Assembly (NCBI GenBank): GCA_030427925.1
Contig: JAUICJ010000001.1
Coordinates: 235,388-299,387, forward strand
Length of the DNA: 64,000 bases
DNA from: Bacteroidia bacterium
Lineage (GTDB): Bacteria > Bacteroidota > Bacteroidia > Flavobacteriales_D > Sanyastnellaceae
Reading direction: 5' to 3'
Shown here: positions 23,857 through 59,558 of the stretch, in pieces
Numbering within the stretch: position 1 is the stretch's first letter
Layout: each line of letters begins with the position of its first letter
Program-made: the position numbers and the translations under genes
The notes under the pieces: model-generated
The model's database searches: none
Told to the model about the DNA's origin: nothing
The model's input: only the letters and a program-made list of their open reading frames with translations

Positions 23857-24261
23857 TTTTCCTTCACAGGTTGCGGCGCAACGATGGATGTTCCAAGACG
23901 GCGGAAGCGAATTTAACCCTTGAGTTTGGAAGTCGTCGCATGTCGAAAACAACGCAATGGCCGATTGGGTCATTCCCCGCCGCCTTTTTTTCAGTGTACA
24001 TGGGACATGGCGGGCGGAACGCGCGGGCAGGGGGTTCGGGTGTTGTTGGGGTGCGGTAGCGTTAATGTGCAGGTGATGCGAAGGAAGTTTAATCGAATTT
24101 GCGCCCAAAAGCGAGGGGGGCTGAGTAGTGTTCGTCCGCTCATTGTAGAGGAATGCCCTCGTGATTGAGTGTGTGAGGCGCGGGGCGGTCGGGGACACAC
24201 TTGGCGGAAATCAGCGGGACGGACGCATGGATTTCAAAGCAAATGGATGCAACTTTCGTCC

Positions 24262-30713: not shown

Positions 30714-31911
30714 CGTCGGGGTCGAGGCGGACGAGGAGGCGGAAGGCTTCGTCGAGGAGGGTTTGGGCTTCGGGGTCGCCGGCGTGGGCCTTGCGGGCGA
30801 GGTAGAGTTCGTGGATGAGCTCGAGCTCGGGGAGGCCGTAGGCGACGCCGGTGAAGCCCTGCACGGTTTCGAGGGGGCTGAAGCCGAATTCGTGCGTGGG
30901 TTCGATCATCGTGCCCTCGCCGAAGTCGTTCCAGGTCGCGAGTTGGAGGGCGTCGAGGTCGGCGTTGGAGGCGATTTCGAGGAGGTCGATCAGGGTTTGG
31001 CCTTGAAGGTGAGCGATTTCCCAGCCCAAACCAGCGCCCCACCCGCCGTCCGCGTAAAAGTCCTTGAACCCCGGATACGCCACGCCCGTCCGCGCCCCCG
31101 GCCCCTCGCTGAACGCCGCGACCGCCGCCAAATGATCCACGCCCCCACCGCCCCAAATCCACGCAAACTCACCGTCCGCCCCCATCTCGGCGCCCTCCCC
31201 CCAAATCGCATGCGTCCGCCCGCTCACCCCCACGTCCGCCCACTCCTCGGGCGTCTCCAACTCAATCGGCCCAAACACCCCCACCCACGGCTCGCCCTCC
31301 ACCCGGAAATACGCGGTGTCCGTGAAATGTCGCCCCGCGATGTGCGCCCAATCCAGCGCAGCCTGCCCGGCCGGCACGTTCGCCAACGTGCGGTCCTCGT
31401 ACATCAACGCATACTCCAGCCCGGCCCTGCGCAACGCGGCAATGAGCGCCTCCGTGGCCTCGTCGATGCGCCCATAATCCAGCACCCCGCTCGTGCCATA
31501 CCAGTCGATGATGGCCCCGTCGATCCCGCTGTACTTCATCAGCAACGTGTGGTACTCCAGCACGTCCTCGTCGAAGCTGGAATACGGGCCGATGAGGGGA
31601 TGGTAATGCGACGCGACGTCCGGCAATCCGTCGGCGCCGGTCGTCCACGGCTGGGCGTTGGCCATGGTCCAGTGGTGGCCCCAGGCGCCGTCGTGTTGAA
31701 GCGTTTCGAACCACGGCATGACGTGGGCGAGGACGGGGAGGGGGTTCGACTTCGCGACGGCGAGCGGGGCGGTGGGGCCGGCGGCGGCGGGCTCCTCCTC
31801 GCGACAGCCGCTTAACCAACTTAAAATACAAAAGGACAATACCAGGGCACTGTTCTTTCTCAGAAACAAGATTTGCTGAATGCCGTATCCCGATGAATGT
31901 TTTGGTGTCAT
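30685..31911 (-). CDS. Putative glycoside hydrolase lipoprotein (GH99/GH71-like TIM barrel; family uncertain)
   Basis: The ATG at 31911 gives a lipoprotein signal (LVLSFCILSWLSGC). HYHPLIGPYSSFDEDVLEYHTLLMKYSGIDGAIIDWYG resembles the GH99-like signature. The track start at 31944 is a TTG. Confidence 0.55.
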   Translation of the reverse strand: MTPKHSSGYGIQQILFLRKNSALVLSFCILSWLSGCREEEPAAAGPTAPLAVAKSNPLPVLAHVMPWFETLQHDGAWGHHWTMANAQPWTTGADGLPDVASHYHPLIGPYSSFDEDVLEYHTLLMKYSGIDGAIIDWYGTSGVLDYGRIDEATEALIAALRRAGLEYALMYEDRTLANVPAGQAALDWAHIAGRHFTDTAYFRVEGEPWVGVFGPIELETPEEWADVGVSGRTHAIWGEGAEMGADGEFAWIWGGGGVDHLAAVAAFSEGPGARTGVAYPGFKDFYADGGWGAGLGWEIAHLQGQTLIDLLEIASNADLDALQLATWNDFGEGTMIEPTHEFGFSPLETVQGFTGVAYGLPELELIHELYLARKAHAGDPEAQTLLDEAFRLLVRLDPDAARAQLAAL

Positions 31912-31984
31912 GAGTTCCTTAGGATGAAAATGGTCTTTCGTCAATTGCTGAATCCGGGAATTAGCATGAGCGTGACACTTTTTC

Positions 31985-33289
31985 TCAAATTTTCACCTTT
32001 GTAACCACGGTGCTCGGCCGGTTCTTCTTCTTGTCAAATCCTTCCGTCACCTGATACCGGACGCGTTGTGATTTCATGTCCTCGGTGAGGCCGTTGCGGA
32101 ACAGCGTGGAACGAGCGAAGGCGTTGTCGCTGCCGTGGGGTCCTTTGATGAAGGCGGCTTTGAGGTTGGGGAGGACGCTGACGATGGTGCCTTCGAACCA
32201 CGGTTGCTGATCGGAAAGGGTGCGGTTGATTTCGGTTTGGAGGGCTTTGCGTGCTTGGGCGATGGTTGGGATGTCGGGGTTGTTGGGGTCGAGGTCGAGG
32301 CGGGAGAGGAGGGTGCGAAGTTCGAGCGGGATTTTCCAGCCCTTTTCGGTGCGGATGGCGAGGGAGGCAAGGGCGAGGGCTTTTGCGAGCGGGATTTGGC
32401 CTTCATCGATGAGTACCTCGCTGAGCTGCGCCCAGAAGGAAATCTTCATCTCGTCCCAGCCCGGAAGCGCCCGGAAATAGGCATCCAACGCCTCCTCCCG
32501 CCGGTTCAACTTCATCAGCACGTCGCCCAATTCGTCCCAAAGAAACCAGTCCCCCTTTTCGAGCGCAATCCGCTTCATTTCCTCGGCCGCTTGCTCTCCG
32601 TCGCCCAGTTCGATTTCGCAGAGCACTTTGCGTCGGCGCCACCAAATGTTGTTGTTATAATGCGGTTTCGTGACCGTTCGCAGCGCCTCATCGCACGCTG
32701 AGATGCAGTCTTCGTAGCGGCCGGCTTCGAGCAGGGCCTTCGTGAGGTGGGCGTAATATGCCTCTTGGTCGCTCGCCTGTTCCACTTTGCGACCGCCGGC
32801 CTCGAATTGCTTGCTGCGCGTGGAAAGGCGACTGGCATCCAGGGTTTCGAGCCATTCAATTGCCTCTTCCGCGTGATTCCCTTGTTGGTCCTCAAGGGCA
32901 TCGACAAGTTTGAAAAGTGCGGCCAAATGCGGACTGTACTCGTCATAAGGCTCTGCCAATCGCGCAATGCCTTTCATCGCATTCCTCAAGGTATTGATCG
33001 GTGTGGGCTGCTTCGCTAAGAACTGGGACTTGAAAATCGTCCAAGCATACAGGTTGCGGTTTGCGCTGTGATCCGGGTCAAGAGTGTACACTTCGCGGCA
33101 AATGGCCAACGCCTCATCGAGCCGATTCAACTTGTAATGCGCTTGGGCCAAACGCCACCCATCCCAAGCGTCCCGTTCTCCCTCCACGGACCAAAGTTGC
33201 TCAAATGCACGCGCCGCCTCGTCCCATTGTTTTACCTGCACAGCCTGCATCCCGGCTTCTCGCAGCTCAGTTTCTTGTTGTTCCGTCAT
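31985..33289 (-). CDS. TPR-repeat protein with C-terminal cold-shock/OB-like domain
   Basis: Trimmed to the ATG at 33289 (MTEQQETEL), which forms an ATGA overlap with the upstream helicase stop. Helical TPR-like repeats run throughout. The last ~70 aa (FEGTIVSVLPNLKAAFIKGPHGSDNAFARSTLF...VRYQVTEGFDKKKNRPSTVVTKV) follow the CSD pattern. Confidence 0.65.
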   Translation of the reverse strand: MTEQQETELREAGMQAVQVKQWDEAARAFEQLWSVEGERDAWDGWRLAQAHYKLNRLDEALAICREVYTLDPDHSANRNLYAWTIFKSQFLAKQPTPINTLRNAMKGIARLAEPYDEYSPHLAALFKLVDALEDQQGNHAEEAIEWLETLDASRLSTRSKQFEAGGRKVEQASDQEAYYAHLTKALLEAGRYEDCISACDEALRTVTKPHYNNNIWWRRRKVLCEIELGDGEQAAEEMKRIALEKGDWFLWDELGDVLMKLNRREEALDAYFRALPGWDEMKISFWAQLSEVLIDEGQIPLAKALALASLAIRTEKGWKIPLELRTLLSRLDLDPNNPDIPTIAQARKALQTEINRTLSDQQPWFEGTIVSVLPNLKAAFIKGPHGSDNAFARSTLFRNGLTEDMKSQRVRYQVTEGFDKKKNRPSTVVTKVKI

Positions 33290-35391
33290 TGCAATTGAAT
33301 GTTCAATGCGCGCAGCACCAGTTGGACCAAACTCGAATCCGACAGAGGAAGGGGAATCTCCTTGGATTTCTGCCCGTTTCCTTTGAAATAAAAGGCGAAC
33401 GTTGCCTCGCGATTTCCCCAATGAAATCGGTAATCGTCTTGGTAGGGAAGCGTCCGGACGAGTTCTACGTTCATGTCCGTTCCGATGAGCCGCTCTTTCA
33501 GGGCATCGAGGAAAACACCGCGAAGGAGCGGGGTGGAGGCCGAAGTGGGCAGGACCACGGCCGAATCATCGAAAGACCCTGCGCCATCATTGAACCGCAG
33601 CGGTTTTTTCACCAAAGGAGCGAGCAGCGCCTTGACCTGTTCGTCCGCGCACGTCACCTTCGAAATTTGAAACTTCCCATTGTAATGCACTTCCACCAAA
33701 GCCACGGATAAGGGAAATCGAATGAGGTAGTTGTGGAAAACGGGCCGATGCAGTTTGGGGCAGTGCCCTTCGAGTGCGTTCAAGACGGCTGCAGCAACGA
33801 GTTCCTGAGAAGCGGGCGCAAGCGGCAATGCCCAATCATCGAAGACCGCAGGCCGCGTGACCTCGATGGCTTCATCTTGGGGAACCGGGACCACTTCTTC
33901 CTCCGGCAACCCGAGCAGGTGCAACGATTTCGAGGCCCGGGTCATCGCCGTGTACACCCACCGAAAGAAGTTCTCATTTTGGCTTCCAAGATGCGTTTGC
34001 TTCAGGTTCAGGTAAACGTGCGGCCATTCCCCACCTTGCGCTTTGTGGCAAGTCATGGCGTACCCAAATTTCGCTTGGACGCAGTTGTAGTAAGGGTCTG
34101 ACATCAACGCGTTTGCGTACGCCATCGTGGACGGCTTGAGGTTCGGATTCCGGATTTTAAAATCGATGTACAATGCCCGCTGCTCATCGAGGGTCAAGAC
34201 TTTGTTGGAGTTGAACAAATAGGGCCAAAAAATAAATTGCTCCTGCGCGTGCAGTTCCCCATCTTTCAGCAATTTCACCTTCTTGAATGCCAAATCCACC
34301 TTCTGCTCCTTCACCACATTCCCGACCTTGTTCTTCAAAGTAATCTTTCTCTGAACAAGCCCATCGGCCACGGCCACCACCCGCACCAATTCGCCATTCA
34401 TGAAGGATGCAGCGGTCGAATACACGTTGCTTGTCACGAGGAGCGTTTCGCCAGGGTGTAGCAGATCCAGTTCGTCAAAGCAGGCCGATCGTACCTCTTG
34501 GTTGAAGTTCCGGGCTTCCTCGTTGGAGTGGGTGATGACGATGCGGTCGTTCGGTGGTGGGGTGCCTCGCTCGAGGTGCCACAACGCTTGAAGACTCGCC
34601 TCCGGCAGCTCTTTCACCACATCTCGCCCGGGCTCAATTCGAAGGTTCCAATCCCGCTTTTCGATGCAGGCTCGGACGTGATTCGCTTGCCGAATGATGT
34701 TGGAGTCCTGCGCTTGGCGAACCACCTCCTTCAAGGTGAATTCGGTGCACTTCAAGCCAAAGTTTTGCTCCAAATACTGCGCGTCTTGGGCGGGGCTATT
34801 CGGCTCCCCGACCGGGGGCAACTGAGCGGGGTCACCCACGAAGATGGCTTTCCTGGAATTGGTTTTTCGACCGATTTCCGTTCGTTTCACCCAATCCTCA
34901 AGCAATCGGCCAGTCCCGAATTTGATGTGTTCTTGCTCGTGTTTGGCAGCTGGAAACATGGACGCTTCATCGACGATGGAACAGTGGTCCAACGTCAGGG
35001 AAGAACTGTCCTCAATGCCGAATTCCAAAACGAGCGATTCCGAATGCTTGACCTCCTTTTCCGACTTTTCTACTTGGGCGGTTTTCCGATACACAAAGCT
35101 GTGAATGGTGGAGGTGGCGAATCCCGTTTTTTGTCGAAGGATCAACGCCGCCCGCCCCGTGAAGGCCATCATGTTGGTGCTTTCAGGCGGGTCAGGCAAG
35201 CGCTCTTCCTTCTGCCGTTGCTTCAGCCACTTCGCGATGCCCCTGGTCATGAACGTCTTCCCCGTTCCCGCCGCTCCGAAGAGGAGAAACACCTCCTCGT
35301 CGCTTTGAAAAAAGGCCTCCAACGCATCGAGCAGCCCCCGCTGCGAGGCCGTCAAGGAATCCAAGTTAAAATGTTCGTGTATTCGTGTCAT
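33286..35391 (-). CDS. RecD-like SF1 helicase (AAA_30 + UvrD_C_2) with ~190-aa tandem-repeat C-terminal domain of unknown function
   Basis: Walker A FGAAGTGKTF, Walker B IVDEASMF, FVGDPAQLPPVG, and a C-terminal helicase motif YAMTCHKAQGGEW. I prefer the ATG at 35391 over the TTG at 35412. Confidence 0.8.
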   Translation of the reverse strand: MTRIHEHFNLDSLTASQRGLLDALEAFFQSDEEVFLLFGAAGTGKTFMTRGIAKWLKQRQKEERLPDPPESTNMMAFTGRAALILRQKTGFATSTIHSFVYRKTAQVEKSEKEVKHSESLVLEFGIEDSSSLTLDHCSIVDEASMFPAAKHEQEHIKFGTGRLLEDWVKRTEIGRKTNSRKAIFVGDPAQLPPVGEPNSPAQDAQYLEQNFGLKCTEFTLKEVVRQAQDSNIIRQANHVRACIEKRDWNLRIEPGRDVVKELPEASLQALWHLERGTPPPNDRIVITHSNEEARNFNQEVRSACFDELDLLHPGETLLVTSNVYSTAASFMNGELVRVVAVADGLVQRKITLKNKVGNVVKEQKVDLAFKKVKLLKDGELHAQEQFIFWPYLFNSNKVLTLDEQRALYIDFKIRNPNLKPSTMAYANALMSDPYYNCVQAKFGYAMTCHKAQGGEWPHVYLNLKQTHLGSQNENFFRWVYTAMTRASKSLHLLGLPEEEVVPVPQDEAIEVTRPAVFDDWALPLAPASQELVAAAVLNALEGHCPKLHRPVFHNYLIRFPLSVALVEVHYNGKFQISKVTCADEQVKALLAPLVKKPLRFNDGAGSFDDSAVVLPTSASTPLLRGVFLDALKERLIGTDMNVELVRTLPYQDDYRFHWGNREATFAFYFKGNGQKSKEIPLPLSDSSLVQLVLRALNIQLQ

Positions 35392-35487
35392 CAAAAGGGC
35401 GTCTATTGCCAAATATCGGAATCTTCACTCAGCGTCACGAATCGCTCGCGTTGTATTTTATATCTTCAAAATTCAAATCGAATCCTC
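35392..35487. promoter_or_regulatory. AT-rich divergent intergenic region between the two helicase operons
   Basis: A 96-bp AT-rich spacer (..ttgtattttatatcttcaaaattcaaatcg..) between divergent starts. No confident Bacteroidota -33/-7 match was identified. Confidence 0.3.
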
Positions 35488-37563
35488 ATGACGGAAGAGC
35501 AACGCGCCCTTCAACTGCTTGTCGCGGCCACGGGCAACCCCGCGGTTCAATTCCGACCCGGACAGCTCGAATCCATCATGCAACTCGTGAGCCACCCCAG
35601 CCGGCAGCTGGTGGTGCAACGAACGGGTTGGGGCAAAAGCGCCGTCTACTTCATCGCCTCGAAGCTCCTCTCCGAACGCGGCGAAGGCATTACCGTCCTC
35701 GTATCCCCCTTGCTCGCCCTCATGCGCAACCAAATCGCAGCGGCTGAACGCATGGGAGTCCGCGCCCTAACGATCAACTCCACGAACTTCGAGGAGTGGA
35801 GCGCAGTGGAACAGCGCATCTTGCGCGGGGACTGCGACGTCCTTATGATTTCGCCAGAGCGCCTGAACAACCAGCGGTTTCGGGATGGGGTTTGGAGCCA
35901 AATCTCCAGCCGCATCGCCCTCCTCGTCATCGACGAAGCGCACTGCATTTCCGACTGGGGACACGATTTCCGCCCGCATTACCGGCTCATCGAGCGCCTC
36001 CTGCGCAACCTCCCTTCCAACGTCCGCGTCCTCGCCACGACCGCCACCGCGAATGACCGCGTGGTCGAAGACCTCCGAACCGTACTCGGCGCCCAGCTCC
36101 GCATCCTGCGCGGGCCGCTTGAGCGCAAGGGCCTGAGCTTGCAAACGGTGAAATTGGCGGACTCGGCGGAGCGCTTGGTTTGGCTCGACCAGGCCTTGCG
36201 GGCCATCGACGGCTGCGGCATCATCTACGTCTTGACGGTTCGGGATGCGCGCAACGTGACGAACTGGCTGGTCAGCCGGGGCCACGCCGTGGAGGCTTAC
36301 ACGAGCCAAAGCGATGACCGCATTGAGCTGGAAGACAAGCTCTTGAACAACGAGGTCCGCGCACTGGTGGCGACCGTGGCGCTGGGCATGGGCTTTGATA
36401 AGCCGGACTTGGCCTTCGTTTTTCACTACCAAATGCCCGGTTCGGTGGTCGCTTACTACCAGCAAGTGGGCCGCGCGGGCCGGGGCATTGCTCAATCTCG
36501 TGGGGTGCTTCTGAGCGGGCGCGAGGACGATGAGATTTCCACGTTTTTCATCGAATCCGCCTTTCCGAAGCCAGAGGAGGTCGCCATCGTCTTGGACGAG
36601 TTGATGGAATCCGAGGAGGGCCTTTCGATTGCCGAGTTGGAGCGGCAGGTGAACTTGAAGCGGTCGGCCATCCAAAAGGTGCTGCTGCTTTTGTCGATTG
36701 AAGACCCTGCTCCGGTCGCGAAGGAGGGCTCGAAGTGGGTTCCGACCATTCACGATGTTCCCGCCGCGTTTTGGGAGCGGGCGCAGCGGCTGACGCGGTT
36801 GCGTTTCGAGGAGTTGGACCAAATGCGCGCCTACGTGGACCTCCCGCCCGGAGAGCACATGAAATTCCTCCTCGACGCGCTCGATGGCCCTGCCCCCACA
36901 GAATCGGGAGGACTTCCTCACTTGAACATCGTGCTCGACCCTTCCCTTGTCGAACAAGCCCAGCGGTTCTTGAGGCGCGCTTACTTGATTTTTGAGCCGC
37001 GAAAGCGCTGGCCATCCGGCGTGCGCCTTCACTCCTTGGGCGCATCCGGCTCCATTCCGGCCTCCCACCAATGCATGACGGGCCAAGCCCTCTGCATCTA
37101 CAACGATTCAGGCTGGGGCAGGGCCGTGAAGCGTGGCAAGTATGTGGAGGGAAGGTTTGACGACGCGTTGGTGGATGCGCTCGTGGATTTGGTGGGCTCC
37201 TTGCCCCGCAGCCAGCCGCCCACGTGGGTGACGTGCATTCCTTCGCACCGGCATCCGGATTTGGTCCCTGACCTCGCCCGGCGCTTTGCCCAACGCATGA
37301 ACCTGCCTTTCCACCCCCTCCTCGCCACACACGTTCCGCACGCGGAGCAAAAAACGATGGAGAACAGCGCTTACCAGTGCGAGAATTTGGATCAAGCCTT
37401 CCGCCTTTTAAGCGCGCCACCGGCAGGACCTGTTTATCTTGTCGATGATATGGTCGATTCTCGTTGGACGTTTACGGTCGCTGCACACCTCTTGCTTTCT
37501 GCAGGTTCAGGTTCCGTGCATCCCATTGCGCTGGCTTCTTCAATGAATTCTGCGAATGGTTGA
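35488..37563 (+). CDS. RecQ-family SF2 helicase fused to a C-terminal ComF/GntX-type phosphoribosyltransferase-like domain (degenerate)
   Basis: Trimmed to the ATG at 35488 (MTEEQRALQ). Helicase motifs: QRTGWGKSAVY, LLVIDEAHCISDWGHDFRPHY, ATTATA, and YYQQVGRAGRG. The C-terminus WVTCIPSHRHPDLV...NLDQAF...GPVYLVDDMVDSRWTFTVAAHLL matches ComF-type PRTase topology, but the TTG of the PRPP loop is replaced by SRW. There is no HRDC domain. Confidence 0.8.
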   Translation: MTEEQRALQLLVAATGNPAVQFRPGQLESIMQLVSHPSRQLVVQRTGWGKSAVYFIASKLLSERGEGITVLVSPLLALMRNQIAAAERMGVRALTINSTNFEEWSAVEQRILRGDCDVLMISPERLNNQRFRDGVWSQISSRIALLVIDEAHCISDWGHDFRPHYRLIERLLRNLPSNVRVLATTATANDRVVEDLRTVLGAQLRILRGPLERKGLSLQTVKLADSAERLVWLDQALRAIDGCGIIYVLTVRDARNVTNWLVSRGHAVEAYTSQSDDRIELEDKLLNNEVRALVATVALGMGFDKPDLAFVFHYQMPGSVVAYYQQVGRAGRGIAQSRGVLLSGREDDEISTFFIESAFPKPEEVAIVLDELMESEEGLSIAELERQVNLKRSAIQKVLLLLSIEDPAPVAKEGSKWVPTIHDVPAAFWERAQRLTRLRFEELDQMRAYVDLPPGEHMKFLLDALDGPAPTESGGLPHLNIVLDPSLVEQAQRFLRRAYLIFEPRKRWPSGVRLHSLGASGSIPASHQCMTGQALCIYNDSGWGRAVKRGKYVEGRFDDALVDALVDLVGSLPRSQPPTWVTCIPSHRHPDLVPDLARRFAQRMNLPFHPLLATHVPHAEQKTMENSAYQCENLDQAFRLLSAPPAGPVYLVDDMVDSRWTFTVAAHLLLSAGSGSVHPIALASSMNSANG

Positions 37564-38650
37564 TTTTCAGATTTCCCCCGATACCGAGGTGGCCTTGCTG
37601 CTCACATCGACGTTGAAGGCCAAACCCGATGCGCAGCCGCTGACCTTAACCGAGTACAACCGTGTGATGCGGGGGTTGGTTGAACGCGGCATGCGGCCAG
37701 CCGAGTTGTTGAACGGCATTCCAGACGGCCTGATGGAGGCGGCGGGCGACCGGCTGGCCCGCTTGCTCGGACGTGGCGTGGCACTTGCCGATGCCCGCGT
37801 GGCGTGGTCCAACCGAGGCATTTGGGTGGCAGGTCGCAGCGATGAGCATTACCCCCAACGCATCGCAGAACAACTGAAAAACCAGCGTCCCCCTTTGTTT
37901 TACGGCGTCGGAAATCCCGAGCTCATGAACCGGCCCAGTTTCGGCATGGTCGGTTCACGGGAAACTTCGGAGGATGTGTTGAATTGGGTGCAGGAATTGG
38001 CCGCCGAGCGCGTGGCGCTGGGCGAAGTGGTGGTATCGGGCGGCGCGAAGGGCGTGGATTTGGCGGCGATGGTGGGAGCGTTGGAAGCGGGGGGCGGCAG
38101 CATCGGATTGTTGGCAAATGATTTGGCCAAACTCGCCCTCTCCAAACCCTTCCGCACCCCCCTTCGCAACGGCAACCTGCTGCTCCTTTCCGCCTCGGAA
38201 CCCGAAGAGCGGTTCAAAGCATGGAAGGCCATGGAGCGCAATAAGTTCATCTACAGCATGTCCAAGCAGCTTGTGGTGGTCGCCTCCGCCTCGGGCAGTG
38301 GGGGTACGTGGGCGGGCGCGATGGAAAACCTCGAGCACCGCTTTTGCACGGCGACCTACTTGCGACATGATGTTGGAGATGCCGGGCTTTCTGCGCTTCA
38401 TCGGCTCGGAATTCCATGGTGGGGCGCAGTGGACGCCGCGCCCCAAATGACCGAGTGGGAGCGAATCCGGAAGCACCTCTTGAATCACGGGCCCGATGGC
38501 CTGAAGAACATTCGCAAGGCCATTGAGTTCCCCGGTAAGGAAGGAACCTTGAAGGGCCTTTTGTTGGAACGGGTTGAATCGGGGGATTTGGTCCGAAAAG
38601 GAATCAAATACGCGGTCAGCGATGGCCACCAAGGCACCTTGTTCGAATGA
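37556..38650 (+). CDS. DprA/Smf-like (SLOG/Rossmann) protein with C-terminal winged-helix-like region
   Basis: The ATG at 37556 overlaps the RecQ-like stop by 8 nt. The core is GMVGSRETSEDV...VVSGGAKGVDLAAMVGALEAGGGSIGLLANDL...RNKFIYSMS..VVVASASGSGGTWAGA. Confidence 0.8.
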   Translation: MVDFQISPDTEVALLLTSTLKAKPDAQPLTLTEYNRVMRGLVERGMRPAELLNGIPDGLMEAAGDRLARLLGRGVALADARVAWSNRGIWVAGRSDEHYPQRIAEQLKNQRPPLFYGVGNPELMNRPSFGMVGSRETSEDVLNWVQELAAERVALGEVVVSGGAKGVDLAAMVGALEAGGGSIGLLANDLAKLALSKPFRTPLRNGNLLLLSASEPEERFKAWKAMERNKFIYSMSKQLVVVASASGSGGTWAGAMENLEHRFCTATYLRHDVGDAGLSALHRLGIPWWGAVDAAPQMTEWERIRKHLLNHGPDGLKNIRKAIEFPGKEGTLKGLLLERVESGDLVRKGIKYAVSDGHQGTLFE

Positions 38651-39972
38651 AAATTGATAAAAAAAATCGGGAGTTTCAGGAAGCTGCCGACGCGGTGCTC
38701 CAAGGCACGGAATCGCTGTTTTTGACAGGCCGAGCTGGCACCGGAAAGACCACCTTTTTGAAGCACATCCGCTCGAGTGCCACCCGACGAACCGCAGTAG
38801 TCGCCCCGACGGGCATCGCGGCGTTGAATGCCGGAGGCATGACCATCCATTCACTCTTCGGCGTTTCGCCTTTTTGGGACCTCGCTACCATGACCCCCGA
38901 AGAAGCCGCGCGGGAAGTGCGCCTGTCTCCTCGGAAGCGCAAAGTGGTGGAAAAACTGGAGTTGCTCATCATCGACGAGGTTTCGATGGTAAGAGCAGAT
39001 TTATTGGACGTGGTGGATGCGGTTTTGCGCCGATACAGTACGCGCGCTGCGGGCAAGGTAATGCCGTTCGGCGGCGCGCAGGTGGTCATGATCGGCGACC
39101 CTTACCAGTTGCCTCCGGTGGTGAGGCGGGAACAACGCGAGGCGCTTTTGGCCCGTTACTCCAGCCCGTTTTTCTTCGATTCGGAGGCGTTTAAGCTGTT
39201 GGCCCCCCAAGTCATCGAACTCCAAAAGATCTATCGCCAAAGCGACCCCGAGTTCATCGGCTTGCTCAATTCCCTTCGCGATGGAGTGGTCACCGAATCC
39301 GCCCTGGCGCCCTTGAAATCCCGGGTTCAACCGGGTATCCTCGAATCCGTTCCAGAAGGCTACCTGACGCTCTGCACCCACCGCAACACCGCCGAAGAAA
39401 TCAATGATCGGGAACTGAGAAAACTGGACGGGAAGCAACGCACTTACGAGGGCAGTTTGAAGGACAAATTCAACGCTTCCGAGGCACCTGCCCCCGTTCA
39501 ATTGGAGTTGAAAGTTGGGGCTCAAGTGATGTTCGTGCGAAATGACCCCGACGAACAATACCAAAACGGCTCCCTGGCCGAGGTGCTCGAAGTCCACAAG
39601 CATCGGGTCAGGGTGCGATTGCTCAACCACCCAGATGAGGCGCCGTTCGACGTGGAGTCGGTGAAGTGGGAGAAGAAGGAACTCCAATTGGCCGATGGCA
39701 AGATGAAGGAGGAAGTCATCGGCACCTACACGCAGTTGCCTTTGCAATTGGCGTGGGCCATCACGGTGCACAAGAGCCAGGGCCTGACCTTGGACCACGT
39801 GGTCGCGGATGTTGCGCGCGCCTTCGATTCAGGCCAAACCTACGTCGCCCTCTCCCGCTGCACCTCCCTCGAAGGCCTCATCCTCCCCGCCATGCCCAGC
39901 CTCCGGTCCATCCGCGTCGCTCCCGAAGTGCGCGCCTTCATGTCCAATTCGAAGCGCTCTCTCGGTACTTGA
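38647..39972 (+). CDS. Pif1-family SF1 helicase
   Basis: ATGA overlap with the DprA-like stop. Motifs: LTGRAGTGKTTF, LLIIDEVSMV, VMIGDPYQLPPV, and AITVHKSQGLTLDHVV...YVALSRCTSLEGL. Confidence 0.85.
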   Translation: MKIDKKNREFQEAADAVLQGTESLFLTGRAGTGKTTFLKHIRSSATRRTAVVAPTGIAALNAGGMTIHSLFGVSPFWDLATMTPEEAAREVRLSPRKRKVVEKLELLIIDEVSMVRADLLDVVDAVLRRYSTRAAGKVMPFGGAQVVMIGDPYQLPPVVRREQREALLARYSSPFFFDSEAFKLLAPQVIELQKIYRQSDPEFIGLLNSLRDGVVTESALAPLKSRVQPGILESVPEGYLTLCTHRNTAEEINDRELRKLDGKQRTYEGSLKDKFNASEAPAPVQLELKVGAQVMFVRNDPDEQYQNGSLAEVLEVHKHRVRVRLLNHPDEAPFDVESVKWEKKELQLADGKMKEEVIGTYTQLPLQLAWAITVHKSQGLTLDHVVADVARAFDSGQTYVALSRCTSLEGLILPAMPSLRSIRVAPEVRAFMSNSKRSLGT

Positions 39973-40047: not shown

Positions 40048-40482
40048 ATGGAACCCCGAAAGTCCCGCATGGAACTGCGCTCAGCGGCCTTCACCCGAGC
40101 GATCCGTCGCCTCGGGCAGGGCATCGACCGCGTGCCGCCTCGCGCCGACGATGAGGAGTTGACCATGGAAGAGGAAGGCCTGATCCAGCGCTTCGAGTAC
40201 TGCTTCGAATTGGGGTGGAAGCTCTTGCAGGATGTGGCGACGGACCTTCACGGTCAGCGGCTCGGTGGACCGCGGGCGGTCATCCGTTGGGCCACCGCGG
40301 AGGGCTGGGCGGAGGACGGGGAGGTGTGGTTGTCGATGTTGCAGAGCCGCAACGTGACGACGCACGTTTACGACCGGGCGACCATCCCGCCCGTGTTGCA
40401 GAAAATCCGGGGCGTGTATTTTAGGGCCTTACATGGACTTGAAGAAGCGGCTCGAAATCATTGCGCGCGCGGATCGGATTGA
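40048..40482 (+). CDS. HI0074-family nucleotidyltransferase substrate-binding (HEPN-like) protein
   Basis: GLIQRFEYCFELGWKLLQD...MLQSRNVTTHVYD is the recognisable family core. Confidence 0.8.
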   Translation: MEPRKSRMELRSAAFTRAIRRLGQGIDRVPPRADDEELTMEEEGLIQRFEYCFELGWKLLQDVATDLHGQRLGGPRAVIRWATAEGWAEDGEVWLSMLQSRNVTTHVYDRATIPPVLQKIRGVYFRALHGLEEAARNHCARGSD

Positions 40483-40486
40483 ACCG

Positions 40487-40825
40487 ATGCGGTGGGGCAT
40501 CGGTCAATCCTTTTGGGACGGGCTGTGTGAGGTGTTCGCCGCTCATCCGACCATCAAGGCGGTGGTGTTGTTTGGTTCCCGGGCTCGGGGGACCCAGCGC
40601 AAGGGTTCGGACGTGGATTTGTGCGTGTTCGGCCGCGAATTTTCATTCGATGACCGGCTCGCTGTCATGGACCAAATCGACGACCTCTGGTGGCCCTACC
40701 ACGTGGACATCATCCATTGGGAGTCGAGTCGCTCCCCGGAGTGGCGACAAAAAGTCCGCCTCGACGCCCGGCTCGTTTACCAGCGTTCCGGCTCCGCGGA
40801 ATTGCCCCCTCAATTGACGGCCTGA
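40487..40825 (+). CDS. Minimal nucleotidyltransferase (MNT, HI0073-like)
   Basis: VVLFGSRARGTQRKGSDVDLCVFG is the NTase GS...D.D motif. I chose the start at the ATG at 40487, 4 nt after the HEPN stop. The ATG at 40433 is an alternative. Confidence 0.8.
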   Translation: MRWGIGQSFWDGLCEVFAAHPTIKAVVLFGSRARGTQRKGSDVDLCVFGREFSFDDRLAVMDQIDDLWWPYHVDIIHWESSRSPEWRQKVRLDARLVYQRSGSAELPPQLTA

Positions 40826-43233
40826 CACCTCGCCACCGACTTCAAGCTCCGGGCCGTGTATTCCGCGGGCTTGCCCTGTTCAATTTCAAATGAAACGCGC
40901 CGGGTCTCACCGGGCTCAAGGGCGAATCCGTTGTCCTCGAACCACCCCGGCACATCGGCCTCCAATCGGACGACCGGAACGTAGTAAGGCGCGGTGACTT
41001 CGACGCCGCCGGGTACGCCGTGGATTTCGACCGGCGCATGCGGAGGCCGGAACTCCAACGGGTTGACGAACAAGGCCGTGCGGCGACCTTCGCTCGACGT
41101 CCAGCCGAGGTAGGTGTGCGCCGGATCGGCGGACCAGGGAGCCAACGCGTCGAGGACGATGGCGGTTTGGCTGTGGGGCGCCAAGTCGATGGCGCGCTGC
41201 ACCCTCCGCCGAACTTGCCCATCCGGTGTTTTCAATTCAAACTGAACCGTATCGCGCCACGGGGAAGGACCGTCGTTGAAGGCGATGAAGACCAGGGAGT
41301 CCGTGCGCTCGCGTTGCCAAAGGACTGCGCGGGGTGCGTTCGCGCGGCGGGCGGCGTAGTGGCCGAGTTTCCATCGCCCCGCCCAGTCCACGGTGGACCA
41401 GGAGACCGCGGGCCACACGTCGTTCAGGGACCAGTAGAGCGAACCGGCGTAGCGGCCGGCGCTGGTACGGTGGCGTTCGAGGGCGTGCTGGAGGCCCAGG
41501 GCTTGCGTGGTTTGGCTTCGGAAAATCCAGTCGTCCAAATCCCCGTCCGCCGGTGCCCCCACTGCCTTCCCCATGAAGTGCAGCATCATGTCCCACCCGT
41601 CGAACCCGGGCTCCAGCCAATCCATGCGGCTCCGCTGGCGGTACTGCAGCGCGGAATCCCCGAACGCCTCGACGCCCGCCTCCCGCAGCGTGTGCCGATC
41701 CGGTAAGCTCTGCAACCCGTACTCGCTCGCAAACCGCCCCCGGTGCCGGCTGTAGTAATCGAAATCCCCCAGCCCAAACCAAATGCCCCATGCGTGCTCG
41801 TCCCCGCCTTCCCCGCGGTTGGGCGACGACGGCCAGTAAAACGCATCGCTTTCGGCCGCCACCACGCGCGGTAACAGGTCATTGAACACCGTTTCGTAAT
41901 CCGCCCAAACCCGCGCGCTGTCCGCCCCATGCAGGCCATACAGGTCCTGCCACCCCCATTCGTACCACGCCCGTTCCACCTCGTTGTTGCCGCACCAAAG
42001 CGCGAGGCACGCGTGGTGCCGCAGCCGCCCCACTTGCTCGCGCGCCTCCGCTTCCAAGTTGGCCAGGAAGGCCGCATCGCCCGGCACCATGGAACAAGCA
42101 AAGGCGAAGTCCTGCCAAACCAGCACCCCCGCCTCATCGCACGCCTGATAAAACGACTCCGGCGGGTAGATGCCACCACCCCAAACCCGCAACATGTTCA
42201 TGTCCGCCGAAACCGCCTGCTCCACCGTTTCAATCCATTTTGAAGCGGCGCGCACCTCGTGGAAATCCGGCGGGACGATGTTCGCGCCGCGCGCGTGGAT
42301 TGGGACGCCGTTGACGTGCAGGGCGAATTGGGGGCCGAAAGCGTCGGGGGTTTGGACCCACTCGAGCGTGCGCAATCCGAGGCGAGTCGTGCGCTCTACC
42401 CCAGTGGCCTCGTGCCTCCACGGCAGGGTGTACAGCGGCTGATCGCCCATGCCAAGCGGCCACCACAGAGCCGGTTGCTCGATGACGAGCGTGTCGCCAT
42501 CCCAATTCCAGTCCCCTTGCAACGTCCAGCCAGCCCGGTTGTGCACCGCCACCCGAGCGGAGGCTGCGGAAGCCGTGAGCACTTCGCACCACGGCGTCGG
42601 CGCATCGGTCCAGCCGCCCGCCGCAGGGTTCACCCACCGCACCATCCCCGTGATGCCAGGGCCCGCAAGCCGCGGCCCCCAGTCCCAGCCGAACTGGTAA
42701 GGGGCCTTCCGCGTGTAGGGACTGCTCTGCTTACCGATGGGCCGGGGTTCATTGCCCGCGGGCAATGCCGCCGAACCCCCAGCGGCCTCAAGGCCACGGG
42801 CCGCCACCGGGTCGAAGCGCACCACCAGCTCGCGCTCCCCGTCGCCTGCCGGGAAATCCGCGCTGCGCCACGTCCGGAGCGCATTGTTCGCCTCGAGCAC
42901 CACCGCCCCATCCACTTCCACCGTCGCATACGTGTCCAGCCCGTCAAACACCAGGAACGTCGCATCGCCGGCGGACCAGCCTTCCGGCCGCACCAGCTCC
43001 AGCCGATACGTCCAAACCGAATCTTCGACCCATTGGACCGCCCCTTCGTTGGTCCCCAAAAACGCATTCGGAACCCGTCCGGCCCGCTCCAATTCCAGCA
43101 ACACATGCCCCGGCACTTCCGCCGATCCGATCCCATCGAGCACCCAGCCCGCCCGCAATTCCACGGCCTCCGGTGCCGCCGAGCGCCCGCATCCCAAACC
43201 GACGGCCAACGCCGCCCAAAGCCATCCTTTCAT
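40810..43233 (-). CDS. Glycoside hydrolase family 2 (beta-mannosidase-like)
   Basis: 807 aa with a signal or lipoprotein-like N-terminus (ALAVGLGC). It has the GH2 sugar-binding, Ig-like and TIM architecture with WCGNNEVERAW and WPSSP motifs. Confidence 0.75.
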   Translation of the reverse strand: MKGWLWAALAVGLGCGRSAAPEAVELRAGWVLDGIGSAEVPGHVLLELERAGRVPNAFLGTNEGAVQWVEDSVWTYRLELVRPEGWSAGDATFLVFDGLDTYATVEVDGAVVLEANNALRTWRSADFPAGDGERELVVRFDPVAARGLEAAGGSAALPAGNEPRPIGKQSSPYTRKAPYQFGWDWGPRLAGPGITGMVRWVNPAAGGWTDAPTPWCEVLTASAASARVAVHNRAGWTLQGDWNWDGDTLVIEQPALWWPLGMGDQPLYTLPWRHEATGVERTTRLGLRTLEWVQTPDAFGPQFALHVNGVPIHARGANIVPPDFHEVRAASKWIETVEQAVSADMNMLRVWGGGIYPPESFYQACDEAGVLVWQDFAFACSMVPGDAAFLANLEAEAREQVGRLRHHACLALWCGNNEVERAWYEWGWQDLYGLHGADSARVWADYETVFNDLLPRVVAAESDAFYWPSSPNRGEGGDEHAWGIWFGLGDFDYYSRHRGRFASEYGLQSLPDRHTLREAGVEAFGDSALQYRQRSRMDWLEPGFDGWDMMLHFMGKAVGAPADGDLDDWIFRSQTTQALGLQHALERHRTSAGRYAGSLYWSLNDVWPAVSWSTVDWAGRWKLGHYAARRANAPRAVLWQRERTDSLVFIAFNDGPSPWRDTVQFELKTPDGQVRRRVQRAIDLAPHSQTAIVLDALAPWSADPAHTYLGWTSSEGRRTALFVNPLEFRPPHAPVEIHGVPGGVEVTAPYYVPVVRLEADVPGWFEDNGFALEPGETRRVSFEIEQGKPAEYTARSLKSVARCQAVN

Positions 43234-43255
43234 GGCTCAATGATACGGAATCCCC

Positions 43256-43987
43256 TCAGCGCCCCTGCAGTTCCCGCAGCAGCATGCGTTTCGCGATGGG
43301 CAGCAAGGTCTCATGCAACGGAAAGCCCATCGACGCCCGCACGAGGTAGGTCGCGGGGTTGGGCAGGTCTTTGAACCGCCGAATCAGCCCCAGTTTCACG
43401 CTCTCAAAGGACTCGCTCAGCAGCTTGTACCGCTGTTCGATGGGCTCGAGCGACAGCTGAATCATCCGATCGTCGTCGAGTTGGATCCAGCTTTTGGCAT
43501 AGCGGTAGGTGCGCAGAAAATGCTGGCTCTCATCGTAGACCAAAACGTACCCATCCCCGCGATAAATCGGCACCACCCCCACCGGCATCACCTCCAAATG
43601 CTCCTCGATCCAGTCGAACAGCTCCCGGCCCTCCTCGAGCACGCGGTCCAACTCCGGCAGCGCGAACGCCAAACACGCCTCGAAGTACGCCTCCAATTCC
43701 GCATTGCCCATCGGCTCATCCTGTTCGAAAATGAGCCGAAGGTGCGCCCAATCGATGCCGGCGATGGAGCGGTTCGTCCCGGATTGCCAAGCCGCCCGCG
43801 CCCGCGCAAAGGCGTTCATAAACCGATGATGCTCAATGACTTCTCCGAGCGCAGGATAAACCCGCCCGGCGTCAAATTGCTGGCGAACGCGTTGCAACCA
43901 GGCCAAAAACAAGTACTGCTTGTACTCGACATCCAGCGCTCCTTGGGTCAACCATTGCGCTTGCAGGGTAGGGGAATGCAGTGTCAT
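43256..43987 (-). CDS. Hypothetical cytoplasmic protein (243 aa)
   Basis: Clean ORF with unbiased composition and an ATG start. Family not recognised. Confidence 0.55.
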   Translation of the reverse strand: MTLHSPTLQAQWLTQGALDVEYKQYLFLAWLQRVRQQFDAGRVYPALGEVIEHHRFMNAFARARAAWQSGTNRSIAGIDWAHLRLIFEQDEPMGNAELEAYFEACLAFALPELDRVLEEGRELFDWIEEHLEVMPVGVVPIYRGDGYVLVYDESQHFLRTYRYAKSWIQLDDDRMIQLSLEPIEQRYKLLSESFESVKLGLIRRFKDLPNPATYLVRASMGFPLHETLLPIAKRMLLRELQGR

Positions 43988-44096
43988 GCTCCGTGTTTAC
44001 GGAGGTGAATTGCAACAGGTTACGTGCGCGTTAACACGCGAGGCACTTGTCAGTTTACATTCCATGCTTATTTTCGTGCCCCATAAACTGCAAGAC

Positions 44097-44414
44097 ATGA
44101 AAAATTTGCTCTACACCCTCCTCGCAGCAGGAGTTGTCGTCATCGCGGGTTGCGGTGAGGACACGGTCGTCTGCGACGGCGACAAGGCGATCATCCGCGT
44201 TGTGAACAACACCGTTTGCACGCCGGACATCGAAATCGAAGGCGACCTGATGGAAGCCGACATGCCCATCCTCGACTCAGCTGAGTACGAAGTGGACGCT
44301 GGATCGTACACGGTCCGCGCGAAGATGGCGTTGATCTCAGCTTGCGAAGACCGTTCAGAGACGTTTGAAACCGAGTGCGGTGGCTTCTACCGCTTCGAAG
44401 TTTACGTCGACTGA
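44097..44414 (+). CDS. Small lipoprotein
   Basis: The ATG at 44097 gives MKNLLYTLLAAGVVVIAGC (lipobox). It is followed by a hairpin and T tract. Confidence 0.65.
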   Translation: MKNLLYTLLAAGVVVIAGCGEDTVVCDGDKAIIRVVNNTVCTPDIEIEGDLMEADMPILDSAEYEVDAGSYTVRAKMALISACEDRSETFETECGGFYRFEVYVD

Positions 44415-44447
44415 TTTCGTCTGAACTCCGATATTCAAAGCCCTCTG

Positions 44448-44474
44448 AGCCCCGTGCTCCGGGGGCTTTTTTTA
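44448..44474 (+). terminator. Rho-independent terminator
   Basis: AGCCCC...GGGGCT hairpin followed by T7. Confidence 0.6.
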
Positions 44475-44485
44475 TTCAATCGAAC

Positions 44486-44920
44486 ATGAAGTACACAGGG
44501 ATGGCCCTCATCGGGGCGCTGCTCCTCAGCACAGGGTGCGAAATCACCTACCGCGGATGCATGGATCCGGAAGCGACGAATTACGACGCCACGGCCGACA
44601 CGGATGACGGGTCGTGCACGTACGAAGGCCAGGCGGTTTTTTGGTACGGCTCGGCCGTTGCGCAGGATTTGGACGCATACCTCAGCGACACCTTGACCTT
44701 TTACGTTGAAGGTGAAGCCCAAATCGTCACCGCAACCGACATGTACTGGTCCGTCGCTCCCGACTGCGGGGAATACAACACCTACACGGTCACCGCCTCC
44801 TTGCCCGACGGCGAGCCGCGCGTCGTTTCCTACCAAGTCATCGACAACTTCGATGACGTGTTGTGGGACGGCATCGTGGCATTCAACCTGGGCGGCTGCA
44901 CGGCCATTGAATTGGAGTGA
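44486..44920 (+). CDS. Small lipoprotein carrying one Cys-rich CxDPxAxNY...DDGSCxY module
   Basis: The ATG at 44486 gives MKYTGMALIGALLLSTGC (lipobox). It contains GCMDPEATNYDATADTDDGSCTY. Confidence 0.65.
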   Translation: MKYTGMALIGALLLSTGCEITYRGCMDPEATNYDATADTDDGSCTYEGQAVFWYGSAVAQDLDAYLSDTLTFYVEGEAQIVTATDMYWSVAPDCGEYNTYTVTASLPDGEPRVVSYQVIDNFDDVLWDGIVAFNLGGCTAIELE

Positions 44921-44936
44921 GGCGCTCGACCCGAAG

Positions 44937-44971
44937 AAAAAAGGCCGGCTCCTCAACGAGCCGGCCTTTTT
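44937..44971. terminator. Bidirectional rho-independent terminator
   Basis: Perfect 9-bp stem GGCCGGCTC/GAGCCGGCC with a 6-nt loop, flanked by A6 and T5. It lies between convergent genes. Confidence 0.8.
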
Positions 44972-44974
44972 CAT

Positions 44975-49429: not shown

Positions 49430-49563
49430 AAGGCTGCTTAGAAGGCGAAAGATACAACGCATCGAGAAAATTGGTTCGCGCCCCTTGTTTTTAATCGTTC
49501 TAAATAAAAATACCGCATTTGCGCGATTGCAAAACGCGGGTTCCCGGGCGGAATTTTGGCCCC

Positions 49564-57204: not shown

Positions 57205-59385
<2,181 letters not shown>

Positions 59386-59558
59386 GGACCAAATGTACCA
59401 ACCCCTCCCCGGACCCCCCGACGCAATTTGCAGGCGCATGCAACGAATTCACAAGCGCTACGCCACGCGCCGGCTGCGAATTTTTTCAGCATTTGGTGAA
59501 CGGTCGACGCGTGGAATGGCTATCTTTGTCCTCGCTTCGGAAGAAGCACCAGCATTGA

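Follow-up and report, generated by a model that had tools for sequence, protein, structure and literature searches.

The psyrT–psyrA gene pair

Two overlapping genes, psyrT and psyrA, lie on the plus strand of the window, by which we mean the whole 64,000-nt stretch of DNA that was analyzed. They share a variable segment with a TOTE/PDC-M16 gene pair on the opposite strand and are followed by a gene for a Pif1-like helicase, which the original prediction did not mention (Table 1). Both open reading frames of the original prediction are present, with lengths of 691 aa (PsyrT) and 364 aa (PsyrA). The psyrT stop and the psyrA start, as read from the sequence, overlap by 8 nt (37556–37563).

Table 1. 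Features of the psyrTA locus and its surroundings, in window coordinates.
Feature	Coordinates	Strand	Protein residues	Basis or remarks
Variable segment, ~6.7 kb	31912–38646			psyrTA on the plus strand, TOTE/PDC-M16 pair on the minus strand
Presumed promoter region between the divergent psyrT and TOTE helicase genes	35413–35487			75 bp, sequence read
psyrT (rqlH-type toxin gene)	35488–37563	+		RecQ-like SF2 helicase with C-terminal PRTase
RecQ-type helicase core	35548–36534	+	21–349	Pfam, PDB profile, Foldseek
Walker A TGWGKS (motif I)	35623–35640	+	46–51	In helicase core
DEAH (motif II)	35932–35943	+	149–152	In helicase core
Counterpart of the RecQ/RqlH tetracysteine zinc-binding module	36805–36987	+	440–500	0 Cys, 6-residue deletion
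C-terminal type I PRTase-fold (ComF-like) domain	36973–37548	+	496–687	AF2 model, Foldseek, Pfam, PADLOC
PRPP-binding loop VYLVDDMVDSRWT	37432–37470	+	649–661	Alignment; acidic dyad D653-D654
psyrA (rqlI-type antitoxin gene)	37556–38650	+		DprA-like
DprA-type Rossmann (SLOG-like) domain	37808–38305	+	85–250	Pfam, PDB
Short C-terminal winged-helix-like tail	38438–38647	+	295–364	Alignment of homologues
Pif1-like SF1B helicase gene	38647–39972	+		4-nt ATGA overlap with psyrA stop

The 691-aa protein matched the PADLOC profile PsyrT (PDLC03928) with an E-value of 1.2e-253 and 841.5 bits, and the alignment spanned the full length (aa 2–687 against profile positions 2–686 of 689). The 364-aa protein matched the profile PsyrA (PDLC03927) with an E-value of 2.1e-87 over aa 6–294 (profile positions 3–298 of 398). 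Both values are far beyond chance. On the same two profiles, the E. coli RqlH/RqlI-type pair used for comparison scored 1045 and 563 bits, and E. coli reference-type toxins reached 1019–1045 bits on the PsyrT profile. Pairwise alignments were run with E. coli RqlH/RqlI-type proteins, whose RqlH-type members were found by nucleotide search with a Providencia homologue and are not the exact F11/CFT073 RqlH sequences; identity was 48% over aa 1–685 of PsyrT and 38% over aa 6–260 of PsyrA.

PsyrTA was defined operationally by profile matches plus adjacency. In most other paired loci, the toxin and antitoxin genes are tightly spaced, from a 4-nt overlap to a few nucleotides apart. The 8-nt overlap fits this spacing and was therefore counted in favor of PsyrTA identity. 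With matches to both PADLOC profiles and the identities to the E. coli pair, the predicted PsyrTA/RqlHI membership is upheld: judged from sequence, the two genes very probably form a PsyrTA (RqlHI) toxin–antitoxin pair, an abortive-infection module in a small variable defense segment. The suggestion that the locus might be a variant of the family was dropped, because the two-gene core shows no departure from PsyrTA apart from the subclade traits described below.

Domains of PsyrT and PsyrA

The helicase core of PsyrT was recognized by Pfam (DEAD, 3.3e-22; Helicase_C, 2e-12; both above the cut-offs), by a PDB profile match to RecQ 1OYW (4.6e-60), and by a Foldseek match to the same structure (3.5e-22). 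The alignment with 27 homologues shows helicase motifs I, II, III, and VI to be intact and invariant. No HRDC, RQC, or RecQ zinc-binding domain was detected by Pfam at E ≤ 0.01, in agreement with the predicted complete set of RecQ motifs without HRDC. PsyrT scored above the cut-off of TIGR00614 recQ_fam (222.3 vs 219.8 bits) and below that of the RecQ equivalog TIGR01389 (252.7 vs 640.2 bits). Because of the latter score and the absence of RQC and HRDC, PsyrT was rejected as a canonical bacterial RecQ.

Helicases swamped the PDB sequence search when the profile of the full-length protein was used, and the PRTase domain was searched and modeled separately. The AF2 model of the C-terminal 196 aa (pLDDT 89.2) matched only type I PRTase folds in Foldseek (APRT, PurF, ShosT 8ZVB/8ZVD, and H. 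pylori ComF 7P0H), which bears out the ComF-type PRTase-like domain of the original prediction. In this fold search, ShosT and ComF were nearest in coverage, with TMq values of 0.52 for 8ZVD and 0.51 for 7P0H. All 13 homologues examined matched Pfam Pribosyltran, with a best E-value of 5.2e-6.

The PRPP-binding loop had been read as a sign of a degenerate PRTase with lost or altered catalysis, which the comparisons contradict. Residues V649, D653, D654, D657, S658, W660, and T661 of VYLVDDMVDSRWT are invariant in 27 homologues, and the pattern LLVDDxxD[ST]xWT is kept in nearly all of 73 loci. The loop aligns with the loop ILIDDIIDTAGTIT of PRPP synthetase at an E-value of 2e-4 and is similar to the active DDIIDTAGT loop of that enzyme. 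By alignment, D654 is the counterpart of D663 in the E. coli F11 protein, and the RqlH loop mutations D663A and DIVD663EVME abolish toxicity in E. coli (PMC4670107). Mutation of the helicase, by contrast, does not abolish the toxicity of E. coli RqlH and may worsen it. The loop of PsyrT matches the consensus of the family, where it is strongly conserved, and is not degenerate. The locus is thus a clear case of the family's unusual PRPP loop being conserved, not decayed.

A tetracysteine zinc-binding domain was defined for RqlH in PMC3378886. In the homologous segment, loci L001–L005 contain no cysteine, whereas nearly all of the remaining 68 RqlH/PsyrT loci have four to five; L081, the one most distantly related, has two. 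The pairwise alignment shows that the CGKCSSC knuckle of the E. coli protein is missing from PsyrT. The absence of zinc-ligand cysteines is common to the whole PsyrT subclade of at least 55% identity, and in the PRPP loop of this subclade Arg (R659 in PsyrT) replaces the Gly that is found in most PRTases and in the E. coli protein. Therefore, the biochemistry of the zinc-less, Arg-loop subclade may differ in detail from that of the characterized RqlH proteins. The tetracysteine module characterizes the founding RqlH proteins and lies outside the operational definition of PsyrTA, which includes the zinc-less subclade. A large PsyrT subclade without zinc-ligand cysteines is a useful by-product observation.

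PsyrA matched Pfam DNA_processg_A (2.2e-32), the PDB structure of DprA 3UQZ (2.1e-9), and, weakly, SLOG LDcluster4 (6.3e-5). A DprA/Smf-fold second protein overlapping the stop of the first was thus correctly foreseen. The scores of PsyrA were below the cut-offs of the dprA equivalog TIGR00732 (85.8 vs 191.15 bits) and of PRK10736 (49.8 vs 495). Its C-terminal tail, which is shortened and divergent, lies outside the PADLOC PsyrA match, and this match extends no further than three quarters of the way along the profile; both points count against the PsyrTA reading. In an alignment of homologues from related loci, the tail corresponds to the C-terminal HTH of the longer proteins, whose low-complexity linker is absent from PsyrA. 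The HTH of E. coli RqlI is dispensable for antitoxin activity (PMC4670107).

Genomic neighborhood and alternative readings

Two further gene pairs make up the defense context of psyrTA: TOTE/PDC-M16 lies upstream and a pair of NTase type downstream. The TOTE/PDC-M16 pair was rejected as a conserved PsyrTA partner because a PDC-M16A homologue was found near none of the 80 other PsyrT loci. A search for direct or inverted repeats flanking the 31.9–38.65 kb region, as marks of a mobile element, returned only short ones at chance level. A scan for terminators and, among promoters, for the sigma-70 type gave counts not above those in shuffled sequence and no match upstream of psyrT. In the Rfam scan of the window, only three tRNAs were found, none of them near psyrTA. 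With a GC content of ~60% in the window and a host RecQ that shares only ~50% identity with named proteins from Bacteroidota and Ignavibacteria, the Bacteroidota host of the original prediction is no more than plausible; the host is described here as an uncultured FCB-group (Bacteroidota-like) bacterium.

The 4-nt overlap and common strand of psyrA and pif1 suggest co-transcription and translational coupling, and helicases are common as partners in defense systems. On these grounds, the Pif1-like SF1B helicase could act as the third functional part of a variant PsyrTA system. However, a Pif1 homologue within 8 kb was found in 0 of the 80 other RqlH/PsyrT loci, and the closest long-contig Pif1 relative (72% identity), which belongs to the syntenic relative L082, occurs without PsyrTA. 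L082 keeps the same downstream synteny (GH2 and neighbors, window 40843–48214) and, according to tblastx, blastn, and alignments, has ~230 bp in place of the ~6.7-kb segment. Homology with L082 is anchored at window 31686–31809 and then from 38647 onward, that is, it starts exactly at the pif1 ATG, upstream of which the sequences are unrelated. Moreover, distant Pif1 homologues (44–48% identity) are widespread in Bacteroidota-type genomes, and the alignment shows that PsyrA retains the family's native C-terminal ending (…LFx). A three-gene module is therefore very unlikely. Because pif1 is absent from the 80 other PsyrT loci and present without PsyrTA in the syntenic relative, it is, on this comparative evidence, a resident chromosomal gene and not a PsyrTA component, and it provides a worked example that a 4-nt gene overlap is no proof of system membership. 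In this lineage, the psyrTA cassette would have inserted such that the stop codon of psyrA came to overlap the start codon of the resident pif1. It is likewise very unlikely that pif1 is now co-translated with psyrTA and joins its action, for example by restricting or channeling the DNA damage caused by PsyrT or by helping to sense phage DNA; if it did, the locus would be a newly assembled PsyrTA variant of a three-helicase type. Separately, the zinc-less, Arg-loop subclade could be biochemically distinct from the characterized E. coli and mycobacterial proteins.

The other two readings concern the function of the pair itself. PsyrT could be a housekeeping DNA-repair/recombination helicase in the mycobacterial RqlH sense, assisted by PsyrA as an accessory DprA-like loader, with no toxin–antitoxin or defense role. 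M. smegmatis RqlH is indeed a bona fide 3′–5′ helicase in a genome without RecQ (PMC3378886), and roughly two thirds of the RqlH loci in the sample have no PsyrA partner. Because many RqlH homologues, mostly actinobacterial, are unpaired, helicase–PRTase proteins are not in every context toxins that need an antitoxin. The present host, however, already has a separate canonical RecQ in the window (57205–59439; TIGR01389, 721.7 bits vs a cut-off of 640), whose close homologues carry RQC, HRDC, and HTH_40. In addition, other conflict systems flank psyrTA, the syntenic relative lacks it, and the paired form is the one that is toxic and antitoxin-dependent in E. coli (PMC4670107). A housekeeping repair role is very improbable. 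The probability of a role in DNA uptake or competence, by analogy with ComFA (helicase), ComFC (PRTase), and DprA, is close to nil: the helicase is of RecQ type and not of ComFA type, PsyrA falls short of the DprA equivalog, no other competence genes were found among the neighbors checked, and the context is a variable defense segment. These observations outweigh the domain parallel pointed out in the original prediction and by Russell and Mulvey (PMC4670107), the fold likeness to H. pylori ComF, and the Pfam DNA_processg_A similarity.

Proposed mode of action and comparison with known systems

As a PsyrTA toxin–antitoxin module, the pair would employ PsyrT as the toxin, with a RecQ-type 3′–5′ DNA helicase motor and a ComF/ShosT-like type I PRTase whose PRPP-binding loop is intact. 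PsyrA, translated from the overlapping start, would be a DprA-like, ssDNA-binding Rossmann protein that restrains PsyrT, most likely by binding it directly. Titration or depletion of PsyrA would result from ssDNA or replication intermediates of the phage, or from the shut-off of host gene expression. Free PsyrT would then, via its PRTase, consume PRPP or move the phosphoribosyl group to an acceptor, and its helicase would engage DNA. The resulting DNA damage, induction of the SOS response, and arrest of growth would abort the infection. For this locus, we infer by homology the helicase activity, the PRTase-dependent genotoxicity, the RqlI-type neutralization and binding, and the protection against phage. 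Helicase activity was shown for M. smegmatis RqlH (PMC3378886). E. coli F11 RqlH exerts PRTase-dependent genotoxicity that is neutralized by RqlI, with which it interacts physically (PMC4670107), and PsyrTA protects against phage (Millman 2022). The trigger model is borrowed from ShosTA; according to a ShosTA mechanism paper, ShosA neutralizes the toxin without direct binding, via RecA.

ShosTA resembles the locus in its PRTase-fold toxin, with a DD dyad required for toxicity, and in its DprA-like antitoxin. The PADLOC ShosT profile matched PsyrT with 2.6e-6 over aa 579–685 only, and ShosA matched the 364-aa protein with 6.4e-19, far behind the PsyrA profile. ShosT has an N-terminal pyrophosphatase/hydrolase domain and no helicase (PMC11961720), whereas the N-terminus of PsyrT is a RecQ helicase. 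Because of this N-terminus and the far better fit of the PsyrT and PsyrA profiles, ShosTA was rejected as the family of the locus. Of the predicted PsyrTA and ShosTA-related core, the PsyrTA part stands and ShosTA is left as a relative; PsyrA rather than ShosA appears to be the better assignment for the antitoxin, the fold being homologous. Likeness to the ComFA–ComFC–DprA set of natural transformation lies in the SF2 helicase, the ComF-type PRTase fold, and the DprA-type Rossmann domain. In contrast to that set, psyrTA has a RecQ-type helicase, is fused or paired as a toxin–antitoxin, misses the DprA equivalog threshold, and is located in a defense-island context.

M. smegmatis RqlH (Ordonez, Unciuleac & Shuman 2012) is also a RecQ-like protein of 691 aa with no HRDC and a ComF-like PRTase C-domain. 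Actinobacterial RqlH homologues are ~42–44% identical to PsyrT; the proteins of this clade contain the tetracysteine module, mostly have no DprA-like gene next to them, and are regarded as repair helicases. The helicase–PRTase fusion, which had been singled out as noteworthy, is the canonical RqlH/PsyrT architecture described in 2012 and 2015 (PMC3378886, PMC4670107) and is no local novelty. The rqlHI-type pair occurs in 1678 of 5426 complete E. coli genomes, and homologues in metagenomes number in the thousands. The locus adds an FCB-group example to this already widespread family and has little importance beyond correct annotation.

The RqlH/RqlI pair of E. coli F11 (Russell & Mulvey 2015), which is PsyrTA (Sberro 2013; Millman 2022), has the same overlapping two-gene layout. 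E. coli RqlH shares with PsyrT the domain order (RecQ core, linker, zinc-module homologue, PRTase) and the PRPP loop pattern VDDxVDSxWT, and RqlI is a DprA-like antitoxin with a C-terminal HTH-type tail, as is PsyrA. Compared to the E. coli proteins, PsyrT lacks the zinc-ligand cysteines, has a 6-residue deletion at that site, and carries the loop Arg in place of Gly, whereas PsyrA is shorter (364 aa vs 400–460 aa) and has no low-complexity linker; the host here is a presumed FCB-group bacterium.

Family assignment of the psyrTA pair

Both open reading frames lie where the original prediction placed them and overlap as it described, with the psyrA ATG 8 nt upstream of the psyrT stop codon. PsyrT matched Pfam DEAD (3.3e-22) and Helicase_C (2e-12), but no HRDC, RQC or RecQ zinc-binding domain was detected at E ≤ 0.01, in agreement with its description as a RecQ-like helicase without HRDC. 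It narrowly passed TIGR00614, the RecQ-family subfamily model (222.3 bits, cut-off 219.8), but scored far below the RecQ equivalog cut-off (252.7 versus 640 bits). PsyrA matched DNA_processg_A (2.2e-32) and, below threshold, SLOG. The profile check for PsyrTA was run with PADLOC. PsyrT aligned with the PsyrT profile end to end (E 1.2e-253; aa 2-687 to profile 2-686 of 689), and aa 6-294 of PsyrA aligned with positions 3-298 of the 398-position PsyrA profile (E 2.1e-87). The ShosTA profiles came a distant second: ShosT reached 2.6e-6 and covered only aa 579-685 of PsyrT, and ShosA reached 6.4e-19 on PsyrA.

RqlH was defined as a 691-aa RecQ-like 3'-5' helicase with no HRDC, a tetracysteine zinc module and a ComF-like C-domain containing a PRTase module (Ordonez, Unciuleac and Shuman 2012, PMC3378886). 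In E. coli F11, RqlH is genotoxic without RqlI, and the PRTase domain is needed for this toxicity, as shown by deletion of aa 509-690 and by the D663A and DIVD663EVME mutations; RqlI, which is DprA-like and has a dispensable C-terminal HTH, interacts with RqlH (Russell and Mulvey 2015, PMC4670107). PsyrTA, which is the same system as RqlHI, protects against phage and resembles ShosTA in that its toxin contains a PRTase and its antitoxin is DprA-like (Millman et al. 2022). Because of these papers, a helicase–PRTase fusion with a DprA-like partner is the textbook definition of the family and not a variant of it. The proposed PsyrTA/RqlHI assignment was right on profile, fold and literature evidence. 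The fusion is present but is the family's known architecture (PMC3378886, PMC4670107) and not peculiar to this locus. The pair is a member already known in kind, which PADLOC or DefenseFinder would call automatically.

Features of the psyrTA region and its surroundings (window positions)
Feature	Position	Strand	Details
GH149 beta-1,3-glucan phosphorylase	20347-24198	-	NF058639 1727 bits
408-aa protein, left edge of variable segment	30685-31911	-	
TPR–cold-shock/OB protein	31985-33421	-	PADLOC 'TPR fused to OB' 5e-48, PDC-M16B 2e-9
SF1B RecD/Pif1-like helicase, C-terminal TBP-TOTE domain	33286-35412	-	PDC-M16A 2.9e-151; Pfam PF22721 1.7e-11
psyrT	35488-37563	+	691 aa
Zinc-module-homologous segment, PsyrT aa 440-500	36805-36987	+	
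psyrA	37556-38650	+	364 aa
Pif1-like SF1B helicase gene (pif1)	38647-39972	+	441 aa; Pfam PIF1 1.9e-30
NTase substrate-binding-like (PF08780, 144 aa) and minimal nucleotidyltransferase (130 aa) genes, overlapping	40048-40825	+	
GH2-family glycosidase	40810-43233	-	
TonB-dependent receptor	49519-51774		
Canonical housekeeping RecQ	57205-59439	-	TIGR01389 721.7 bits

The PRPP loop and the zinc-binding module

In an alignment of 27 PsyrT homologues (A1, 55-70% identity), the PRPP-loop consensus was LLVDDMVDSRWT, with V649, D653, D654, D657, S658, W660 and T661 invariant. The motif LLVDDxxD[ST]xWT was almost universal in the 73 RqlH/PsyrT genes of 80 genome loci, and actinobacterial RqlH carried LLVDDxxD[ST]GWT. 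One loop change alone was specific to the sub-clade: Arg659 replaces the Gly of E. coli and classical PRTases. Pairwise alignment with the E. coli RqlH-type loop, LLVDDIVDSGWT, suggests that D654 is the counterpart of F11 D663, mutation of which abolishes RqlH toxicity (PMC4670107). When the last 196 aa were used as a profile, PRPP synthetases were the best sequence matches in the PDB, and the loop aligned with their ribose-phosphate loop ILIDDIIDTAGTIT (E 2e-4); because of this alignment, an Asp two residues past the DD dyad is normal in an active PRPP-binding loop. Pfam Pribosyltran was matched by all 13 homologues tested (best E 5.2e-6). Modelled with AF2 (pLDDT 89.2), the domain matched type I PRTase folds only; coverage was widest for ShosT (8ZVD, TMq 0.52) and for ComF of H. 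pylori (7P0H, TMq 0.51). With the loop conserved across the family and similar to that of PRPP synthetases, and with a PRTase fold, the earlier label 'degenerate' is unsupported.

No cysteine was found at aa 440-500 in the window PsyrT or its relatives of at least 55% identity, a group that takes in five of the compared loci (L001-L005) and the 27 sequences of A1, among them proteins named from Paraburkholderia, Stutzerimonas, Moraxella, Avibacterium and Fibrella. Of the 68 remaining loci, almost all had 4-5 cysteines in this segment; L081, the most distant, had 2. Judged from these alignments, none of the four zinc-ligand cysteines of the RecQ/RqlH module survives in this sub-clade, whereas they are kept in E. 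coli, Providencia and actinobacterial proteins; the CGKCSSC knuckle of the E. coli RqlH-type protein is deleted. We found no mention of this loss in the RqlH/PsyrTA literature searched. Thousands of ~692-aa proteins (~57% identity) from Proteobacteria and Bacteroidota belong to the sub-clade. The window PsyrA is a short one. It has no counterpart of the low-complexity linker seen in longer homologues, although its last ~70 aa align with their winged-helix tail. The corresponding tail is dispensable in E. coli RqlI (PMC4670107).

Genomic neighbourhood and alternative readings

The start codon of pif1, a gene that the original prediction did not mention, shares bases with the psyrA stop codon (ATGA). 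A three-gene PsyrTA–Pif1 module is nevertheless very unlikely. PsyrA lay directly downstream of PsyrT in ~21 of the 80 other loci and upstream in one more (L011), but none of the 80 had a Pif1-like homologue within 8 kb. Among Pif1 relatives on long contigs, the closest (P0132, 72% identity) is encoded in L082, a syntenic relative from which the PsyrTA and TOTE genes are absent and whose contig carries a RecQ 67% identical to that of the window. Similarity begins precisely at the pif1 ATG and continues co-linearly through ~9 kb downstream (38647-39945 and 40843-48214, GH2 and neighbours). The distance from the left anchor (31686-31809) to pif1 is ~230 bp in L082 versus ~6.8 kb in the window. 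Because of this synteny, the absence from 80 loci and the family's usual …LFx terminus of psyrA, the overlap is best read as an accident of cassette position. By this comparison, pif1 is a resident gene and not part of PsyrTA; its expression by read-through from psyrTA is possible. Its product is compact, and many homologues of 44-48% identity are longer, with a C-terminal HRDC or HTH_40 that is missing here.

That PsyrT is a housekeeping RqlH-type repair helicase is barely credible, given the coupled antitoxin gene, the variable-island location and a separate RecQ, owing to which the host has both types. Close homologues of this RecQ carry RQC, HRDC and C-terminal HTH_40; the nearest named ones are from Bacteroidota and Ignavibacteria (~50% identity). 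The chance of a competence module is virtually negligible, as the helicase is RecQ-type and not ComFA-type, DprA scores of PsyrA are sub-threshold and the genomic context speaks against it.

Divergent from psyrT, within the same ~6.7-kb variable segment, the pair at 31985-35412 forms a conflict system of the TOTE type (TPR, OB, TBP, Effector), which PADLOC lists as candidate PDC-M16. The TBP-TOTE domain is TATA-binding-protein-like. Synteny with L082 stops left of the 408-aa protein gene. This protein matches an 81-aa protein (L082 7550-7795) in aa 34-75 and 376-408 only; therefore, ~300 internal residues were gained or lost in one genome. The NTase pair that separates pif1 from the GH2 gene looks like an MNT/HEPN-like toxin–antitoxin pair, and its 130-aa member matched NTP_transf_2/Polbeta and PDC-S09 (3e-9); L082 has only a weak uncalled remnant of the pair (tblastx 44% over 120 aa). 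The GH149, GH2 and TonB-dependent receptor genes indicate a polysaccharide-degrading lifestyle. Window GC is ~60%, and the host is an FCB-group organism, plausibly a member of the Bacteroidota.

Proposed mechanism and comparison with the E. coli pair

By homology, PsyrT would be a DNA-translocating helicase with its PRTase domain as the toxic effector, and PsyrA a co-translated DprA-like antitoxin that would restrain it, probably by binding it directly, as in E. coli. On infection, freed PsyrT would damage DNA, induce the SOS response and arrest growth. The trigger may resemble that of ShosTA, where ssDNA interferes with the ShosA–RecA axis and phage shut-off of host expression depletes the labile antitoxin.

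A nucleotide search with a Providencia homologue as query located RqlH/RqlI-type pairs in 1678 of 5426 complete E. coli genomes. In the ST131 locus L086 (NZ_CP051609.1 3119517-3123034), rqlHI/psyrTA has been inserted into a type I restriction–modification operon, between hsdS and hsdR. The proposed alignment with the E. coli proteins upheld the relationship, at 48% identity for PsyrT (aa 1-685) and 38% for PsyrA (aa 6-260). On the same PADLOC profiles, the E. coli pair scored 1019-1045 bits (PsyrT) and 563-577 bits (PsyrA). These identities and scores make the window pair a genuine, though more divergent, member of the family.
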